This document shows, one piece after another, positions 45,128 to 52,675 of a DNA stretch of 64,000 bases (its first letter is position 1; each line of letters begins with the position of its first letter). Origin of the DNA: Halarcobacter sp. (GTDB taxonomy: Bacteria > Campylobacterota > Campylobacteria > Campylobacterales > Arcobacteraceae); contig CP182352.1 in NCBI GenBank assembly GCA_048571215.1, forward strand, positions 3,456,001 through 3,520,000, in the 5' to 3' direction. The notes under the pieces were generated by a model. That model had not been told where the DNA came from. It worked only from the letters and a program-made list of their open reading frames with translations, and ran no database searches. The position numbers were made by a program, and so were the translations under genes.

Positions 45128-47185
45128 ATGTCTTTAGAAAAATCCCAAGAACAATTGCAAAAAATATTAATAGAAACTTATTTTTCAAATTTAGAGTTTT
45201 TAAAACAATTTGATAAAAACCTTTTTAATAGAGTAGAGCAGCTATCTTCAGTGATTAATAGTGGACTTTATCCTGAAAGATATTTTTTAGAATTTATTCA
45301 AGATGTTGGAGAGTTTGATATTTATGATTCCCATACAAAAGAATATTTATATAAAAAAAATCCTAAAAAGATTAACCATAAATTAGTAAATGATATAAAA
45401 CTTGATAAGAGTTCATATTTTTCTTCGATGTTAACTGAACCATATGATTTAAAGTTAGAATCTAAAGAGATTAATATGGATTATGAGACATATGAAGATA
45501 TAGAGTATTTAATAGTTAATGATATGAAAAAATTTACCCAAATATTAAAAGATGACACTTTAAGTAGTAAATCATATAAATATGTAGAAAAATTTATTTT
45601 TATGGGAACACTTTTAGGTAGACATATTTTAGATGCTCACAAAAAAATAAAAGCAAAAAGCTATTTTATTTGCGAAGATAATTTAGAAGTTTTTAGATTA
45701 TCTTTGTTTGTTATAAATTATGTAGAAGTTTATAGGGATTCAAAGTTAACTCTTTCAATAATGGATGATGAAAATATTTTTATAACAAAATATCAACTCT
45801 TTTTAGAGCAAAATCCAGATGAAAACTATTATATAAAATATTGCACAACAAATTACAATGTTTCATCAATGATGCAAAGGGTGATTTCAACGATGTATAA
45901 AACAAATCCAATGGTATTTGATTATACAAGGGTATTGTATAACTTGGTAAAGTTAACTTCCCAACGAGTAAATAAAGATAATATATTAACTATCTCTAAA
46001 AAAAGAGATAGTTTTAATTTTGCTGAAGGTAAACCTGTGATATTTGTTGCTGCAGGACCATCTTTGCAAGATAATATTTCATGGCTTAAATCAAATCAAA
46101 ATAAATTTATTGTTGTTGCTATTGGTGCTTCTTATAAAATGTTATTAAAAAATGGAATTACACCAGATATAATAAGTACTATTGAACCAAGTTTTAGAGA
46201 CTTGAAAAAATTTCATTTTACAGATGAAGACTTAGAGAAATTACAAGAAACAATTATTTTAGCTTCTGTTATTACACCTGAACAATTAACAAATAAATTT
46301 AATAAAGAAAAAGTTTTTTATTTTGAAATAAATAATTCATTTAAAAGTAACTCAACACCATATAAAGGGTATAGTGTAGGAGAACTTACTGTAGCAATCT
46401 TATTACATTTAGGTATAGAAAAACTATATTTGTTGGGTACTGACTTGGCAATTAATTCAAAAACTGGGGAAACTCATTTCTCTGATTATAAAGATTTAGA
46501 AAAAAAAGATATAAAAGAGAAAGACTCTAATAAATCATTGAAGACAACAAAAACAACTTTTAAAGATGATTTGGTTCCTGTAAAAGGAAACTTTAATGAT
46601 GAAGTTTTAACCACCCGCATATTTATAATGTCTATTTTTGCTTATATGCAAATTTTACAAGAGTTTAAAAAAGAAAATCAAAAAGTAATTAACCTCTCTG
46701 ATCATGGAGCATATTTAGAAGGAACTATCCCATTAAAAATAGAAGAGTTAGACTTAACAAACAATGAAAATATAGATAAAAAAGTTTTAAATAATTTTTT
46801 AGTTGAAAAGCTAAATGAAGTTAGTGAAAATAGATTGACACAAGAAGAGTTAGAAGGGGTAAAAAAAGAGATAGCATATTTTGATAATTTAGTTTTTGAG
46901 TTGAAAAATGACTTATCAAGAGATATTAATAGTTTTAAGGATTTAAAATCATTAATGTATGATACGGAACAGAGTATTAAAAAAATAGGTTATCCCACAC
47001 TTATGAACTATCTTATGGAACAGTATTCAAAATTTGCAAATCTTTATATATGCTATCATTTTAATGACAAGAAATTAAAAAATGAGTTTAAGAAGATTAA
47101 AGCTGTAAAAGAGGTATGGCTAAAACAAGTTATTAATTTATTAGAACAATATCTTAAGTATTTGAAAAATATGATTGATTCTTAA
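45128..47185 (+). CDS. Motility-associated factor (Maf, DUF115) flagellin glycosyltransferase
   Basis: FIFMGTLLGRH, VFRLSLF, VAAGPSL, GITPDI and YLLGTDLA...GETH; adjacent to the flagellins. Confidence 0.88.
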   Translation: MSLEKSQEQLQKILIETYFSNLEFLKQFDKNLFNRVEQLSSVINSGLYPERYFLEFIQDVGEFDIYDSHTKEYLYKKNPKKINHKLVNDIKLDKSSYFSSMLTEPYDLKLESKEINMDYETYEDIEYLIVNDMKKFTQILKDDTLSSKSYKYVEKFIFMGTLLGRHILDAHKKIKAKSYFICEDNLEVFRLSLFVINYVEVYRDSKLTLSIMDDENIFITKYQLFLEQNPDENYYIKYCTTNYNVSSMMQRVISTMYKTNPMVFDYTRVLYNLVKLTSQRVNKDNILTISKKRDSFNFAEGKPVIFVAAGPSLQDNISWLKSNQNKFIVVAIGASYKMLLKNGITPDIISTIEPSFRDLKKFHFTDEDLEKLQETIILASVITPEQLTNKFNKEKVFYFEINNSFKSNSTPYKGYSVGELTVAILLHLGIEKLYLLGTDLAINSKTGETHFSDYKDLEKKDIKEKDSNKSLKTTKTTFKDDLVPVKGNFNDEVLTTRIFIMSIFAYMQILQEFKKENQKVINLSDHGAYLEGTIPLKIEELDLTNNENIDKKVLNNFLVEKLNEVSENRLTQEELEGVKKEIAYFDNLVFELKNDLSRDINSFKDLKSLMYDTEQSIKKIGYPTLMNYLMEQYSKFANLYICYHFNDKKLKNEFKKIKAVKEVWLKQVINLLEQYLKYLKNMIDS

Positions 47186-48990
47186 GTTAGTATTTTTATT
47201 AAGTAATCAATCACTTCTAATCTTTGTTTATGAAATATATTTATATTGTTTTTTTGTTTTGTAGCTTTGAAATAAGGACTTACGAGTTTTTCAAACTTGA
47301 TTAAAATATTTAAAACTATAGACTCTGGGTATTCTTTTTTTAAGTTTACTAATATTATATCAAACTCTTTTTCATCACTTTTTTTTAGTTCTTTAAGTAA
47401 AACTATCTCTTTTTTACAATTTTCTATACTTGCTTTACCAAGTTTACTTATGGATTGAGAATTTAATTCCTTGGTTAAAGTTTTTTGTATTGATGACTTG
47501 TCTTCTATTTTTTTATTTTTGATAGTATCTATTTTTGTAGGGATACAATTTTTAAGATAAGCTCCATCAGATAAGTTAAAAACCTTTTTATTTATTGTTT
47601 TTGATAGAGTTTCAAATCTATCAATAATCTCTTTAAAGGCCAAGCTAGTATCTACAGTTTTTTTAAAGTTACCTTTGATTTTTATTAGTGTAGTTTTATA
47701 GTCTGAACTATTTTGCATATTTTCAAGTTGTATATTTTGTTGGTGCAAGGAGTCATGTGAATTTAGGGTATTTGAATATGCAGCATCAATTCCTAATAGA
47801 TATAAAGATGAAAAATTAAATATAGAGGCTATCTCAAACATACAATCACCAACAGATACAGGATAAAAGCTTTTTACTTCTTTTATGAAATTAATTGAAA
47901 TCTCAATCATATAAGTTTTTGAAGATAGTATTCTCTCAATAACTAGTCTATTAGTTTTGGAAGATACAAGAATGGTACTTGTTTCATAAAACTTTTTATC
48001 AACATTAAACTGCTCTAATATCTCCTTTTTTTTCTTATCTATACAAACAACCATATCTGGAACTACATCAAGAAAAGCTAATCTTTTCAGTGCAGCAGAA
48101 GCACATATAATATAAAAGTTTTTGTGGTGTTTTTTTATAAACTCTTGATATTTTTCCAAAGATGGACCTGCCCCAAGAATCAGTGCAGGTATGTTTTTTT
48201 TCTCAAAGTTATCTTTAAAAGATATAAATGGAATTTGTGTATGGTTTAGATTATACAAAGCTCTTTTTATATTTATAATATCTTCTGAATAAACATCAAT
48301 AAATGGATTTTTGGAAATCAACAAATTTTTAAGTAAAGATATTAAATCAATATACTCTTCGCTTGCAAGTTCAAATTTTATTAAATTGTTATCTTGATAT
48401 TTATATTCTAAGAACTCTTCTACCGTTTGGCTTAACTCTTTTTGATTTTCTTCTATTGAAAAAAATAGTTTTGATGTTTTTGCAATTTCTGTATAATCTG
48501 TTAGAAATAAACTTAATCTAAATATTTCAATATTAGGTTCAACAATTAAATAAGTTGATTGTTTTTCAATTCTATGAATATCATTTAGATGTACTCCTAA
48601 CAATGTCCCAATAAAAATAAATTTTTTATTACTATTTGTTTCTATTTTATTTAAATAAGTATGAACAAGTGAATGTCCTGATAATTCATCACTATCATTA
48701 AGATTTTTATCATCTATAGAATCAACTATAATTTTAAAATAAGCGTTTGAACTTTTAATAGATTCAGCTCTACATTTTGCATCATAAAAGGGATCACAGT
48801 TATACACCTTTTTATTTTTAATATATAGTTCAAAGTGGTTGTTCTCAAAATTAATATAACTATTCTCAATACCTTTTTTTTCAAAATCATATATTTTTTT
48901 ATAAATCAATGGATAGTTTATTTTTAGGTATGTAGTATTTTGTTGATAAATTTCTAATAGGGTATTTTGTAGATTATTTAAATCATTCAT
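47182..48990 (-). CDS. Second Maf (DUF115) flagellin glycosyltransferase
   Basis: FIFIGTLLGVH, EPNIEIFRLSLF, LGAGPSL, PD and YLLGIDAAY; convergent with the first Maf, sharing TTAA at the stops. Confidence 0.88.
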   Translation of the reverse strand: MNDLNNLQNTLLEIYQQNTTYLKINYPLIYKKIYDFEKKGIENSYINFENNHFELYIKNKKVYNCDPFYDAKCRAESIKSSNAYFKIIVDSIDDKNLNDSDELSGHSLVHTYLNKIETNSNKKFIFIGTLLGVHLNDIHRIEKQSTYLIVEPNIEIFRLSLFLTDYTEIAKTSKLFFSIEENQKELSQTVEEFLEYKYQDNNLIKFELASEEYIDLISLLKNLLISKNPFIDVYSEDIINIKRALYNLNHTQIPFISFKDNFEKKNIPALILGAGPSLEKYQEFIKKHHKNFYIICASAALKRLAFLDVVPDMVVCIDKKKKEILEQFNVDKKFYETSTILVSSKTNRLVIERILSSKTYMIEISINFIKEVKSFYPVSVGDCMFEIASIFNFSSLYLLGIDAAYSNTLNSHDSLHQQNIQLENMQNSSDYKTTLIKIKGNFKKTVDTSLAFKEIIDRFETLSKTINKKVFNLSDGAYLKNCIPTKIDTIKNKKIEDKSSIQKTLTKELNSQSISKLGKASIENCKKEIVLLKELKKSDEKEFDIILVNLKKEYPESIVLNILIKFEKLVSPYFKATKQKNNINIFHKQRLEVIDYLIKILT

Positions 48991-49078
48991 CTTCTCTCTT
49001 TTAATTAATTGATTATAATGAGAGTAATATTAAATAAAGGTTAGTTAGTTTTTTTTGATTGATATAGGAAGTTGAGAT

Positions 49079-49116
49079 ATGTAGTTAGCAGTAACTTAAA
49101 GTTACTACTACTACAT
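49079..49116 (-). terminator. Long 3' hairpin after flagellin 1
   Basis: Minus-strand AUGUAGUAGUAGUAACU-UUA-AGUUACUGCUAACUACAU, with one G-U pair and one bulge. No clean U-tract follows. Confidence 0.65.
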
Positions 49117-49129
49117 GAAAGGATTATTA

Positions 49130-49978
49130 CTATTGTAATAATCTTAAAACATTTTGTTGTGTATTGTTAGCTTGCGAAATAGCATAAGATCCCGCTTGCG
49201 AAATAATGTTTTGTTTATTGAAATTAGCTGATTCTTGCGCATAATCAACATCTCTAATGATAGACTCGGCTGCTTTAACATTTGTAGCTTGAGTCATAAG
49301 GTTTCTAACTGCAGATTCAACTTGATTTTGAGTAGAACCTATCTCCCCTCTATTACTATTAAGAGTAGTAATAGCAGAATCAATAACTGTTTGTTGAGAA
49401 GCAGCAAGAGTTTTACTAATACCACCAGCATCAACAGAAGTTTTTAAAGTAGCTAAACTTAATCCGCCTGTATTTGACTGAATTGCAGCAGTTGAAATAG
49501 TATCAGATGAAGTTTCTCCAATTTGGAAATTTAATCCAGCAGTTGCAGCAGAAGAAGTTGCACTAGATTGTAAAAGATACGTACCATTGTAGTTTGTTTG
49601 TGACGCAATATTATTTAACTGAGTAAGTAATTTACTAACATCATCGGCAATAGCATTTCTACCAGCAGTAGAAGTTGTATCAGTGTTTGCTTGAATCAAT
49701 TTAGCTTTGATAGTATCTAAGATATTAGATTGTTCTGACATAGATTTATCAGCGATTTGAAGTAAAGCAACAGCTGAATTACCATTGTCAACAGCTTGGT
49801 TAATAGATGAAGCTTGTGTTCTTAATTTATCTGCAATAGCAAGACCAGAAGCATCATCTGACGCTTTATTGATTCTAAGACCTGAACTTAATTTTTCTAA
49901 CGAATTTTTGATATTAAAATTCGTATTACTTGCACTTTCTTGTGCAGTTAATGATGAAACATTTGTATTAATTCTCAT
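49130..49978 (-). CDS. Flagellin 1 (282 aa)
   Basis: MRINTN, LEKLSSGLRINKASDDASGL, IRDVDYA and NVLRLLQ. Start is ATG 49978, after AAAGGA. Confidence 0.97.
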   Translation of the reverse strand: MRINTNVSSLTAQESASNTNFNIKNSLEKLSSGLRINKASDDASGLAIADKLRTQASSINQAVDNGNSAVALLQIADKSMSEQSNILDTIKAKLIQANTDTTSTAGRNAIADDVSKLLTQLNNIASQTNYNGTYLLQSSATSSAATAGLNFQIGETSSDTISTAAIQSNTGGLSLATLKTSVDAGGISKTLAASQQTVIDSAITTLNSNRGEIGSTQNQVESAVRNLMTQATNVKAAESIIRDVDYAQESANFNKQNIISQAGSYAISQANNTQQNVLRLLQ

Positions 49979-50090
49979 AATAGATCCTTTCTTATTATGA
50001 CACAATGTAAATATAATTTATATTTACTCCTAAAACATTCTTGTTTTATCAAGCATGGAGAACAAGTCTCCTCGGAATCCATTGATCCCT
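49979..50090 (-). promoter_or_regulatory. Structured 5' leader of flagellin 1 (four hairpins plus RBS)
   Basis: Inverted repeats at 50074-50089, 50057-50071, 50040-50053 and 50007-50027, conserved with compensatory changes in the flagellin 2 leader. Confidence 0.7.
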
Positions 50091-50098
50091 ACACTGAA

Positions 50099-50132
50099 AT
50101 TATGACACTATTAAACTTAAAATTAGATTAAA
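50099..50132 (-). promoter_or_regulatory. Sigma70-type promoter of flagellin 1
   Basis: Minus-strand TTTAATCTAATTTTAAG-N8-TGTCATAAT; the same architecture is found upstream of flagellin 2. Confidence 0.6.
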
Positions 50133-50281
50133 TTTATAAAAAATCAAGAAATGGATAAAATTATTTAAAATATTTTGAATTTAATTTCTAAGAGAGAGAT
50201 TTCATTTATACTATATTATCGTATTTATATACTTAAAATTAGATTAATTAAGTATATAAATAGAAATGGTAAAAATTATTA
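50115..50281. repeat. Imperfect direct repeat of about 50 bp (duplicated promoter module)
   Basis: acttaaaattagattaa is identical at 50115-50131 and 50231-50247; each copy is followed by agaaatgg..aaaattatt. Confidence 0.65.
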
Positions 50282-50383
50282 TTTTAATATAGTCAAATTA
50301 TTGATTTTAGTTGGATATATAAAAGTAGTTATATAAATATTGATATTTAAACTTGGAGAAAAAAATCTTTACATAAAAATACA

Positions 50384-50410
50384 TAAAGTAGTAGTAAACC
50401 TACTACTTTA
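50384..50410 (-). terminator. Intrinsic terminator of flagellin 2
   Basis: Perfect 11-bp inverted repeat UAAAGUAGUAG-GUUUA-CUACUACUUUA followed by UGUAUUUUU. Confidence 0.75.
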
Positions 50411-50479
50411 AGCATTTTTGTAATAATCTTAATAGAAATGCAATCTAAGTAAATAAATTTACTACTGCTAGATTACTTC

Positions 50480-51328
50480 TTATTGAAGTAATCTAAGAAC
50501 GTTTTGAGCGGTATTGTTAGCCTGCGAAATAGCATAAGATCCCGCTTGCGAAATAATGTTTTGTTTATTGAAATTAGCTGATTCTTTTGCATAATCAACA
50601 TCTCTAATGATAGACTCGGCTGCTTTAACATTTGTAGATTGAGTCATAAGGTTTCTAACTGCAGATTCAACTTGATTTTGAGTAGAACCTATCTCCCCTC
50701 TATTACTATTAAGAGTAGTAATAGCAGAATCAATAACTGTTTGTTGAGAAGCAGCAAGAGTTTTACTAATACCACCAGCATCAACAGAAGTTTTTAAAGT
50801 AGCTAAACTTAATCCTGTTGTATTTGACTGAATTGCAGCAGTTGAAATAGTATCAGATGAAGTTTCTCCAATTTGGAAATTTAATCCAGCAGTTGCAGCA
50901 GAAGAAGTTGCACTAGATTGTAAAAGATACATACCATTGTAGTTTGTTTGTGACGCAATATTATTTAACTGAGTAAGTAATTTACTAACATCATCGGCAA
51001 TAGCATTTCTACCAGCAGTAGAAGTTGTATCAGTGTTTGCTTGAATCAATTTAGCTTTGATAGTATCTAAGATATTAGATTGTTCTGACATAGATTTATC
51101 AGCGATTTGAAGTAAAGCAACAGCTGAATTACCATTGTCAACAGCTTGGTTAATAGATGTAGCTTGTGTTCTTAATTTATCTGCAATAGCAAGACCAGAA
51201 GCATCATCTGACGCTTTATTAATTTTAAGACCTGAACTTAATTTTTCTAACGAATTTTTAATGTTAAAATTTGTGTTAGCAGCAGCTTCCTGCGCATTTA
51301 ATGATGATATATTTGTATTAATTCTCAT
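50480..51328 (-). CDS. Flagellin 2 (282 aa)
   Basis: Same flagellin terminal motifs as flagellin 1. Start is ATG 51328, after AAAGGA. Confidence 0.97.
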   Translation of the reverse strand: MRINTNISSLNAQEAAANTNFNIKNSLEKLSSGLKINKASDDASGLAIADKLRTQATSINQAVDNGNSAVALLQIADKSMSEQSNILDTIKAKLIQANTDTTSTAGRNAIADDVSKLLTQLNNIASQTNYNGMYLLQSSATSSAATAGLNFQIGETSSDTISTAAIQSNTTGLSLATLKTSVDAGGISKTLAASQQTVIDSAITTLNSNRGEIGSTQNQVESAVRNLMTQSTNVKAAESIIRDVDYAKESANFNKQNIISQAGSYAISQANNTAQNVLRLLQ

Positions 51329-51442
51329 AATAGATCCTTTCTTATTATGACACAATGTAAATATAATTTATATCTACGCCTTAAAACCTTCTTGAAAAAA
51401 TCAAGCATAGAGAGAAAATCTCTTCGGAAGCCATTGCTCCCT
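51329..51442 (-). promoter_or_regulatory. Structured 5' leader of flagellin 2 (four hairpins plus RBS)
   Basis: Inverted repeats at 51426-51441, 51409-51423, 51391-51405 and 51357-51377. Confidence 0.7.
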
Positions 51443-51456
51443 AAAGTTATAATGTA

Positions 51457-51490
51457 ATTATTACACACCAATTCTTAATATTAGTTTAAA
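51457..51490 (-). promoter_or_regulatory. Sigma70-type promoter of flagellin 2
   Basis: Minus-strand TTTAAACTAATATTAAG-N8-TGTAATAAT. Confidence 0.55.
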
Positions 51491-51680
51491 TATATTATAG
51501 TTACTGAAATATTTTTATATTTTGTATTAAAATAAAAATTATTCTATAATAAAGAAAACATATGTTTTGTATGTAGTAGTGAAAACTAGTGCTATAAGAG
51601 TTATTTTAAAATTTTTGATTGATTTAGATTACTTTTTATTAAAGTAGTCCAAGAATATTGTGACAGCAATGTATAAAGTA

Positions 51681-51705
51681 AAAGTAGCAGTTCTGCTGCT
51701 ACTTT
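51681..51705 (-). terminator. Intrinsic terminator of flagellin 3
   Basis: Perfect 10-bp inverted repeat AAAGUAGCAG-CAGAA-CUGCUACUUU followed by UACUUUA; homologous to the flagellin 2 terminator with a U-A to C-G covariation. Confidence 0.75.
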
Positions 51706-51779
51706 AATGATTATTATAATAATTTAAGAACGTTTTCAAGGAAACATTCTGCGTAGCTTACGCTACTAGTCCTAGATTA

Positions 51780-52628
51780 CTATTGAAGTAATCTAAGAAC
51801 GTTTTGAGATACATTGTTAGCTTGCGAAATAGCATAAGATCCCGCTTGCGAAATAATGTTTTGTTTATTGAAATTAGCTGATTCTTTTGCATAATCAACA
51901 TCTCTAATGATAGACTCGGCTGCTTTAACATTTGTAGCTTGAGTCATAAGGTTTCTAACTGCAGATTCAACTTGATTTTGAGTAGAACCTATCTCCCCTC
52001 TATTACTATTAAGAGTAGTAATAGCAGAATCAATAACTGTTTGTTGAGAAGCAGCAAGAGTTTTACTAATACCACCAGCATCAACAGAAGTTTTTAAAGT
52101 AGCTAAACTTAATCCTGTTGTATTTGACTGAATTGCTGAAGTTGAAATAGTATCAGATGAAGTTTCTCCAATTTGGAAACTTAATCCAGCAGTTGCAGCA
52201 GAAGAAGTTGCACTAGATTGTAAAAGATACGTACCATTGTAGTTTGTTTGTGACGCAATATTATTTAACTGAGTAAGTAATTTACTAACATCATCGGCAA
52301 TAGCATTTCTACCAGCAGTAGAAGTTGTATCAGTGTTTGCTTGAATCAATTTAGCTTTGATAGTATCTAAGATATTAGATTGTTCTGCCATAGATTTATC
52401 AGCGATTTGAAGTAAGGCAACAGCTGAATTACCATTGTCAACAGCTTGGTTAATAGATGTAGCTTGTGTTCTTAATTTATCTGCAATAGATAAACCAGAA
52501 GCATCATCTGACGCTTTATTGATTTTAAGACCTGAACTTAATTTTTCAAGAGAGTTTTTTATTGCACTATTTGTATTAGCTGCAGCTTCTTGAGCAGTCA
52601 ATGATGATATGTTTGTATTAATTCTCAT
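51780..52628 (-). CDS. Flagellin 3 (282 aa)
   Basis: Same flagellin motifs; only 47 bp downstream of trmA; AAGGG RBS. Confidence 0.97.
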   Translation of the reverse strand: MRINTNISSLTAQEAAANTNSAIKNSLEKLSSGLKINKASDDASGLSIADKLRTQATSINQAVDNGNSAVALLQIADKSMAEQSNILDTIKAKLIQANTDTTSTAGRNAIADDVSKLLTQLNNIASQTNYNGTYLLQSSATSSAATAGLSFQIGETSSDTISTSAIQSNTTGLSLATLKTSVDAGGISKTLAASQQTVIDSAITTLNSNRGEIGSTQNQVESAVRNLMTQATNVKAAESIIRDVDYAKESANFNKQNIISQAGSYAISQANNVSQNVLRLLQ

Positions 52629-52675
52629 TTTTTAACCCTTACAGTTTGTATACTTAAATAATATCTAAGCTAAGT

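Follow-up and report, generated by a model that had tools for sequence, protein, structure and literature searches.

The DNA analysed here is a stretch of 64,000 nucleotides from contig CP182352.1 of a Halarcobacter sp. (the window; positions are counted from its first letter unless stated otherwise), and it carries three tandem flagellin genes on the minus strand, each encoding 282 amino acids and each matched by the Pfam families Flagellin_N and Flagellin_C. These are flagellin 1 (49130..49978; 1.6e-37 for Flagellin_N and 5.9e-26 for Flagellin_C), flagellin 2 (50480..51328; 6.1e-37 and 2.9e-26) and flagellin 3 (51780..52628). Flagellins 1 and 2, though not flagellin 3, are each preceded by a leader of about 115 bases with four hairpins, P1 to P4, and this leader RNA is the subject of the present analysis. 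As terminator-like hairpins stand behind flagellin 2 (50384..50410, minus strand) and flagellin 3 (51681-51705, minus strand), each flagellin gene appears to be a separate unit.

Counted from P1 to the start codon, leader 1 lies at 49976..50094 and leader 2 at 51326..51446, both on the minus strand like all features listed for them below, and both are full-length matches to the covariance model R1 described later (G000:C1:3505976-3506094, 111.4 bits, E 1.7e-18; and G000:C1:3507326-3507446, 108.7 bits, E 5.6e-18). In leader 1, P1 (50074..50089) reads GGGAUC-AAUG-GAUUCC, P2 (50057..50071, a hairpin of variable length in the family) reads GGAGA-CUUGU-UCUCC, P3 (50040-50053) reads CUUG-AUAAAA-CAAG and P4 (50007..50027) reads GUAAAUAUA-AAU-UAUAUUUAC, with an AUG junction between P2 and P3 (50054-50056). 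The counterparts in leader 2 are GGGAGC-AAUG-GCUUCC for P1 (51426-51441), and the stems AGAGA/UCUCU for P2 (51409-51423), CUUGA/UCAAG for P3 (51391-51405) and GUAGAUAUA/UAUAUUUAC for P4 (51357-51377). Between P4 and the ribosome-binding site there is a conserved box, UGUGUCAUAAU (49994..50004 in leader 1 and 51344-51354 in leader 2), with TGTCATAAT at 49994-50002 and 51344-51352, respectively. The Shine-Dalgarno sequence AAGGA follows at 49985-49989 for flagellin 1 (start codon 49976-49978) and at 51335-51339 for flagellin 2 (start codon 51326-51328).

The initial annotation of this DNA had described the four hairpins with their stem differences between the paralogues, three GGA motifs that differ between leaders 1 and 2, and an identical segment running up to the ribosome-binding site; all of these can be read in the sequence, and the two leaders are in fact the same over the last approximately 60 bases before the ATG. 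Its statement that similarity ends just upstream of P1 did not hold, since a promoter-like block, TTTAAnCTAAnnTTAAG..GTGTnATAAT, is common to both genes farther upstream. When folded as single sequences, the leaders reach -25.2 and -26.2 kcal/mol (z of -2.25 and -2.09 for leaders 1 and 2), and P1, P2 and P4 are present in both folds, P3 only in that of leader 2.

Two paralogues cannot settle whether such a pattern is due to chance, and relatives were therefore collected. A BLASTN search with a 150-base leader found the two copies and nothing else below E 0.01 in the 3.6-Mb genome to which the window belongs, while it gave matches in 79 of 184 family genomes (13 of 22 genera). A protein-guided scan added 71 loci from Arcobacter, Halarcobacter, Aliarcobacter, Malaciobacter, Poseidonibacter and metagenome-assembled genomes of Arcobacteraceae. 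The 159 flagellin starts in the collected loci yielded 59 distinct upstream regions with a simple P1 pattern, and 45 of these were aligned with MAFFT (alignment A2); the 14 omitted rows, which differ in their 3' part or contain very long inserts, were recovered afterwards by the covariance model search. On A2, RNAalifold predicts P1, P2 and P3 unaided, with double changes in 10 of the 15 pairs that it proposes. Covariance model R1 was built from A2 and a hand-written structure, P1 to P5, where P5 is an added start-codon hairpin. It gave 130 matches in 98 loci, with 104 distinct rows (alignment A3); the 125 full-length matches all end at a flagellin ATG, and the remaining five are cut by the end of the locus.

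In both alignments the hairpins are kept by compensatory change. Paired cells amount to 94.5% in A3 against 81.0% in shuffles and to 94.5% in A2 against 85.8%, while cells with a double change number 349 in A3 (98.8 in shuffles) and 104 in A2 (31.7 in shuffles), values that none of 500 shuffles reached in either case. If the partners are slid by one to three columns, only 25-50 double-change cells are found in A3 and 4-25 in A2. Double changes occur in 16 of 26 pairs in A3 and in 13 of 26 in A2, against 8.0 expected from shuffles for the latter. Since A3 was fitted to the model, its counts lean toward the structure, whereas those of A2, aligned with MAFFT only, are without that bias; in both, kinship among rows of one genus or one tandem array makes the cell counts an overestimate of independent events. 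The diversity of pairs seen at a given position across 18 genera is unaffected by this kinship. Among the 104 distinct leaders of A3, covarying pairs make up four of six in P1, five of five in P2, two of four in P3 and all five modelled in P4, and P3 occurs as CUUG/CAAG, CUCA/UGAG and CUUA/UAAG.

Two further approaches gave the same picture. When all column pairs are scanned for mutual information, the helix pairs come out highest, with the top pair of the whole alignment in P4; pseudoknots or tertiary pairs were also considered, and the scan yields only helix pairs and their neighbours. In an alignment-free closure test, segments were cut at invariant anchors and asked to close with at least four consecutive end pairs, which was the case for 41 of 47 distinct segments of P1, 58 of 61 of P2, 57 of 58 of P3 and 65 of 77 of P4, while about 3% of shuffles close (2.6% for P2, whose segments are 12-47 nucleotides long). 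In addition, G.U pairs outnumber A.C pairs by 105 to 5, which means that the folded strand is the flagellin sense strand. Compensatory changes on the sense strand thus maintain P1 to P4 in 18 genera, and the covariation in a wider alignment, which the initial annotation had left to be established, is present in A2, in A3 and in the closure test. We are highly confident that this is a real structured leader RNA.

The element does not correspond to any catalogued family. Rfam 15 gives no match at E <=10 in the window at 48500-52500, and in 10 related loci at E <=1 there are seven weak hits, at 22.8-35.1 bits where the gathering scores are 50-114, none of which overlaps a leader; in the initial annotation, too, the element had not been recognised as a known riboswitch. 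We found no description of the element in the literature covered, to which Ho et al. 2008 on Arcobacter flaA/flaB does not belong. The GC-IGR survey of Stav et al. 2019 (PMC6429828), in its section on Arcobacter sp. L, lists 14 intergenic candidates, none of them beside a flagellin gene. Together with the covariation and the conserved promoter upstream (see below), the lack of an Rfam match bears out the proposal that the flagellin genes carry an undescribed, conserved cis-acting RNA leader.

R1 matches are present in 110 of 151 family genomes (100 of the 133 of good quality) and in 18 of 22 genera, while none was found in 144 genomes from 12 other families of the class. The window's own genome contains the two flagellin leaders only, and upstream of flagellin 3 there is no R1 match. 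For comparison, Flagellin_N is encoded in 137 of the 151 family genomes. Wherever the element occurs, it stands directly upstream of a flagellin start codon. The largest number per genome was observed at G169:C1:3387741-3398327, where 11 leader and flagellin units follow one another in tandem at a spacing of approximately 1.05 kb.

Several positions are invariant or nearly so: at P1, the preceding UA, the two outer G-C pairs, an A-U in the loop and the A that follows; the AUG between P2 and P3 (104 of 104 rows), the CU/AG foot of P3 and AA-K-GU after P3; and the G before P4, AAUGUGUCAUAAU after P4, AAAGGAU and AUUAUG. No variation is seen in the junction bases UA-GG, CC-RA, AUG-CU and AG-AA, P2, P3 and P4 differ freely in loop and length, and per-column conservation in the proximal box is 71-99%. 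The helices drift while the junction bases at their feet stay fixed, which suggests that P1 to P4 are specifically recognised. A leader peptide starting at the invariant AUG was considered and discarded, as open frames of 3 to more than 26 codons occur, spread over all three frames, with neither length nor frame conserved.

A variant, which we call type B, accounts for 18 of 103 distinct rows and is Malaciobacter-like. Here P4 is replaced by CCC-GURUCA(U)-GGG, and the box region by UAAAUCUUUU, which is complementary to AAAGGAUUUA. Internal copies in the Malaciobacter-type arrays (loci L028, L033, L050, L057, L065, L084 and L095) are without the promoter module described next, and the internal type-B copies share a GGnnTTGAAACA motif 8-12 nucleotides before P1.

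Approximately 15 bases upstream of P1 there is a conserved flagellar promoter module of about 35 nucleotides with two TTTAA repeats 11 nucleotides apart, found at 50099..50134 for flagellin 1 (AATTTAATCTAATTTTAAG-N11-CATAAT) and at 51457..51490 for flagellin 2 (TTTAAACTAATATTAAGAATTGGTGTGTAATAAT, one mismatch to the pattern), both on the minus strand. Its family consensus, taken from 70 upstream regions, is aaTTTAAtCTAAtTTTAAGAAwTGgTrTGtmATAaT, and the TAAGAA part lies 30-46 nucleotides (mode 35) before P1. The module precedes P1 in 74 of 105 distinct upstream regions, or in 75 when the variant of flagellin 1, which escaped the pattern, is counted. From the promoter spacing, we infer a transcription start about 10 bases before P1; in the literature, we found no map of transcription start sites for Arcobacter. 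The other 30 of the 105 regions lie behind another flagellin gene, with its stop codon within 15-60 nucleotides or right after a terminator hairpin. In genera g22 and g10, flagellins without P1 to P4 have the module about 30 nucleotides ahead of their Shine-Dalgarno sequence. As it precedes leaderless flagellins too, the module is presumably the promoter of the flagellin genes, with the leader located between it and the ribosome-binding site.

Without mismatch, the module occurs at two other sites in the genome: G000:C1:989014-989035, ahead of a gene for a 220-amino-acid protein, and 3614331-3614352, between flgH and an open reading frame with a rod/hook N-terminal domain. It has the look of the late flagellar promoter in a family lacking both FliA and RpoN. 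A simple scan for a sigma-70 consensus was uninformative (23 sites against 21.6 expected). Flagellin 1 has a second full copy of the module at 50215-50247 (minus strand; TTAATCTAATTTTAAG-N11-GATAAT), about 115 nucleotides upstream of the first, while flagellin 2 has a single copy only. The Flg_bb_rod-domain reading frame behind flgH (L117:1564-1677, within the last 120 bases of the contig) stops after 37 codons, past a run of A, which could be a frameshift, phase variation or an artefact of the assembly end.

The box close to the start codon raises the question of a second promoter, since the box equals the extended -10 element, TRTGnCATAAT, of the distal promoter. The second TGTGTCATAAT could then be the actual promoter, a further one, or a site of sigma-dependent pausing on the non-template strand, in which case P1 to P4 would belong to an upstream transcript or to a longer isoform only. 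The 30 of 105 upstream regions without the distal module, some of them right behind a terminator, would also fit such an arrangement. Several observations speak against it. The proximal hexamer ends 6-8 nucleotides before the GGA, so that the messenger would begin at the Shine-Dalgarno sequence, and no TTTAAnCTAAnTTTAAGAA module stands ahead of the box, whereas the module precedes every other instance, about 30 nucleotides upstream of the Shine-Dalgarno sequence. In type B, GURUCA is kept inside the CCC/GGG hairpin, i.e., the core is conserved even where no -10 element is possible. P4 has no run of U, and so nothing would end the upstream transcript, while the covariation shows that P1 to P4 are transcribed. 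Because there is no module in front of it and it is too close to the ribosome-binding site, the proximal TGTGTCATAAT is a poor candidate for the main promoter, and we consider a promoter or pause site at this position quite improbable.

With regard to the start site, 100 distinct leaders (83 of the main type, 17 of type B) were folded thermodynamically together with 27 nucleotides of coding sequence. In the main type, the AUG is predicted to be paired with a mean probability of 0.91, against 0.56 at 18 other open reading frame starts of the window, and its G to pair with the box region with a mean probability of 0.84; the predicted pairing is between CAUAAU of the box and AUUAUG at the start codon, and it does not covary. 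The Shine-Dalgarno sequence has a paired probability of 0.16 in the main type, including both leaders of the window, and of 0.96 in type B. That one conserved upstream domain is combined with two unrelated modes of start-site occlusion suggests control at translation initiation, and we think it probable that the leader acts in cis on translation initiation or messenger stability.

Our preferred interpretation, to which we would give roughly even chances, is that the leader is a cis-acting translational operator of the flagellin messenger, which would set the use of the start site by binding a factor. Through pairing of the box UCAUAAU with AUUAUGA, a weak hairpin would form that includes the start codon and has the Shine-Dalgarno sequence in the loop; in the Malaciobacter-type variant, the partner of UAAAUCUUUU would be the Shine-Dalgarno sequence itself. 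The recognition platform would consist of P1 to P4 and their invariant junctions, and occupancy of this platform would open or close the start-codon hairpin, tying flagellin synthesis to some signal, such as filament assembly. That the leader depends on a dedicated trans-acting factor is a separate claim, which we regard as possible, though slightly less probable than its opposite.

One candidate for such a factor is CsrA, as the initial annotation had proposed that CsrA binds the GGA motifs of the leader and that the two paralogues differ in their sensitivity to it. At first sight this is attractive, because the Shine-Dalgarno AAGGA would lie in a predicted hairpin loop, like a CsrA site, and the genome encodes FliW (L109:1483-1857; G000:C1:1041240-1041614). 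Yet CsrA (PF02599) is found neither in the window's complete genome (completeness 100%) nor in six other family genomes, whereas 129 of 144 genomes from other families of the class encode it; for the two large sister families the counts are 53 of 53 and 57 of 60. Among 99 distinct leaders, the three GGA sites in question are kept in 32, 6 and 12 leaders and the Shine-Dalgarno GGA in 98, which makes the latter the only conserved one. The proposal therefore fails on both counts, and with FliW not co-distributed with the leader, binding by CsrA can be regarded as extremely improbable. A passage in Mo et al. 2022 (PMC9321776) reports the loss of CsrA, RpoN, FlgRS and FliA/FlgM in Arcobacter, and one in Miller et al. 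2007 (PMC2147049) the absence of RpoN and FliA from A. butzleri.

Several findings weigh against the operator interpretation, beginning with other candidate partners. FliW is patchy (76 of 151 family genomes, with two copies in some); it was not found in the leader-bearing genera g13 (0/21), g19 (0/6), g3 (0/8), g8 and g9, and it is present in the leaderless genera g22, g4 and g10, so that its distribution does not track the leader, and we rejected it as the partner. In the window's genome, the genes beside that of FliW (ArsC-family, unknown and RecD2-like) show no likeness to CsrA. FlbT and FlaF were rejected as well, as PF07378 and PF07309 have no match at E <=0.1 in this genome while a Caulobacter control genome was hit. 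The 220-amino-acid protein mentioned above (L116:1560-2222; G000:C1:989073-989735), encoded directly behind a perfect promoter module and present in 104 of 151 family genomes, belongs to no Pfam or NCBIfam family; it is absent from the leader-bearing genus g17 (0/7) and present in four of five genomes of the leaderless g22, and was likewise rejected.

The remaining points of this kind concern the leader itself. No leader was detectable in three flagellated genera (g22 0/5, g4 0/2, g10 0/2), which means that it is not indispensable. The start-codon hairpin P5 shows no covariation on A3, and its inner pair is unpaired in 39 of 92 cells. As the box is identical to an extended -10 element, it may have a role at the level of DNA. 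The kinship of the alignment rows was mentioned above. Contigs of a sediment metatranscriptome (word share 0.09) run from the coding start into the leader, and one of 271 letters bridges the coding start and P1 and continues for 150 letters; as these come from relatives only, cannot show transcription starts and may include DNA in the library, they are a weak hint that the leaders are transcribed, and most of the leader has no contig cover at 80% likeness.

The main competitor of the operator is a different explanation: the leader could be a messenger stabiliser or expression enhancer without a dedicated regulator, in which a hairpin near the 5' end and further hairpins would block 5'-dependent decay and keep the ribosome-binding site accessible. 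P1 is predicted to lie about 10 nucleotides from the transcript start, the Shine-Dalgarno sequence of the main type is predicted to be unpaired (0.16), no partner protein was found among those checked (FlbT, FlaF, FliW and the 220-amino-acid protein), and flagellin is a bulk product, with up to 11 tandem units in one genome. For a stabiliser, however, stems would suffice, and there would be no need for junction bases to stay invariant in 18 genera with drifting stems; type B sequesters the Shine-Dalgarno sequence (0.96 paired), unlike what would be expected from an enhancer; and flagellin 3 as well as the flagellins of three genera manage without the leader. Taken together, we consider this explanation rather unlikely.

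The same invariant bases, at the feet of three adjacent helices, could also suggest that the leader senses a signal directly, either as a small-molecule riboswitch (e.g., for cyclic di-GMP) or as an RNA thermometer in which the start-site hairpin melts. The start site is predicted to be occluded in two different ways, and the U-rich strand of type B to pair with the Shine-Dalgarno sequence, as in fourU thermometers. On the other hand, the hairpins follow one another linearly, neither a multi-stem junction that encloses them nor a pseudoknot is present, mutual information gives no extra pairs, no riboswitch family of Rfam matches, the Shine-Dalgarno sequence of the main type is predicted to be open, and a check for a riboswitch expression platform found no terminator in the leader. 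A direct sensor is thus, in our opinion, an improbable explanation.

Flagellin leaders controlled by CsrA and FliW are known from Campylobacter jejuni flaA and Bacillus subtilis hag (cited in PMC9321776), and like these, the present element is the 5' untranslated region of a major flagellin with hairpins and with the Shine-Dalgarno GGA in a hairpin loop, its presumed purpose being the coupling of flagellin translation to assembly. Unlike these, it has no homology to them in sequence or structure, it measures about 115 nucleotides with four hairpins in a family with no CsrA in the seven genomes searched, its second GGA site is not conserved, and FliW is not co-distributed. In Caulobacter, FlbT and FlaF control the 5' untranslated region of fljK, so that translation is repressed until assembly proceeds; such a protein-bound flagellin leader is a model for how the present one may act, although the window's genome lacks Pfam matches for both proteins.

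The 5' untranslated region of ompA in E. coli and other enterobacteria is a messenger stabiliser, and it shares with our leader a length of more than 100 nucleotides, a very abundant messenger, a hairpin near the 5' end (predicted in our case) and more hairpins before the ribosome-binding site; there is no homology, and the present element differs in its junction bases, invariant family-wide, and in a variant that sequesters the Shine-Dalgarno sequence. Like the present element, the flg-Rhizobiales RNA motif, along with other motifs of Rfam that precede flagellar genes, is a conserved structured RNA upstream of such genes in a single lineage without an established mechanism, but no Rfam family matches our leaders. 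As in fourU thermometers, the 17 type-B leaders are predicted to pair UAAAUCUUUU with AAAGGAUUUA (0.96); the main type, including the leaders of the window, differs in keeping the Shine-Dalgarno sequence open (0.16) and occluding the AUG, and thermometers have nothing that corresponds to the large domain P1 to P4 upstream.

As for the surroundings, a TrmA-like gene lies upstream of the flagellins and Maf-type genes lie downstream. Flagellin 3 is located 47 bases behind the TrmA-like gene, and it has a different conserved upstream motif, GCTTAGATAwTAT (51780-52675 for gene and upstream region, minus strand); this leaderless layout behind a TrmA-like gene recurs in several relatives (L009, L010, L011, L019, L021 and L022). 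Two Maf-type genes with MptE-like and Maf_flag10_N domains adjoin the flagellins at 45128-48990, and the run of same-strand open reading frames upstream of them may be a flagellin glycosylation island.

Returning to the operator, the leader is likely a new control element for flagellar filament production. To hypothesize further, it could be the RNA half of a post-transcriptional checkpoint that took over after the loss of sigma-28/FlgM, sigma-54/FlgRS and CsrA in Arcobacteraceae, a proposal that we put forward only tentatively and consider unlikely as it stands. Such a checkpoint would have a protein linked to filament export, or a small signal molecule, read the junction platform of P1 to P3 together with the GUGUCAU box, and the start-site hairpin would be opened or closed accordingly, with flagellin made only when export is possible.

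Passages of two genome papers state that all known flagellar regulators of the phylum are missing in Arcobacter and that the actual ones are unknown (PMC2147049, PMC9321776). The present analysis offers two testable handles on flagellar regulation in Arcobacter and its relatives: a covarying, flagellin-specific leader RNA in more than 100 genomes, and a promoter module common to the flagellins and at least one late flagellar gene. The leader is a clean candidate for a new RNA family, for which an alignment and a covariance model already exist, and either the leader or the promoter module could be used as bait for the missing regulators.

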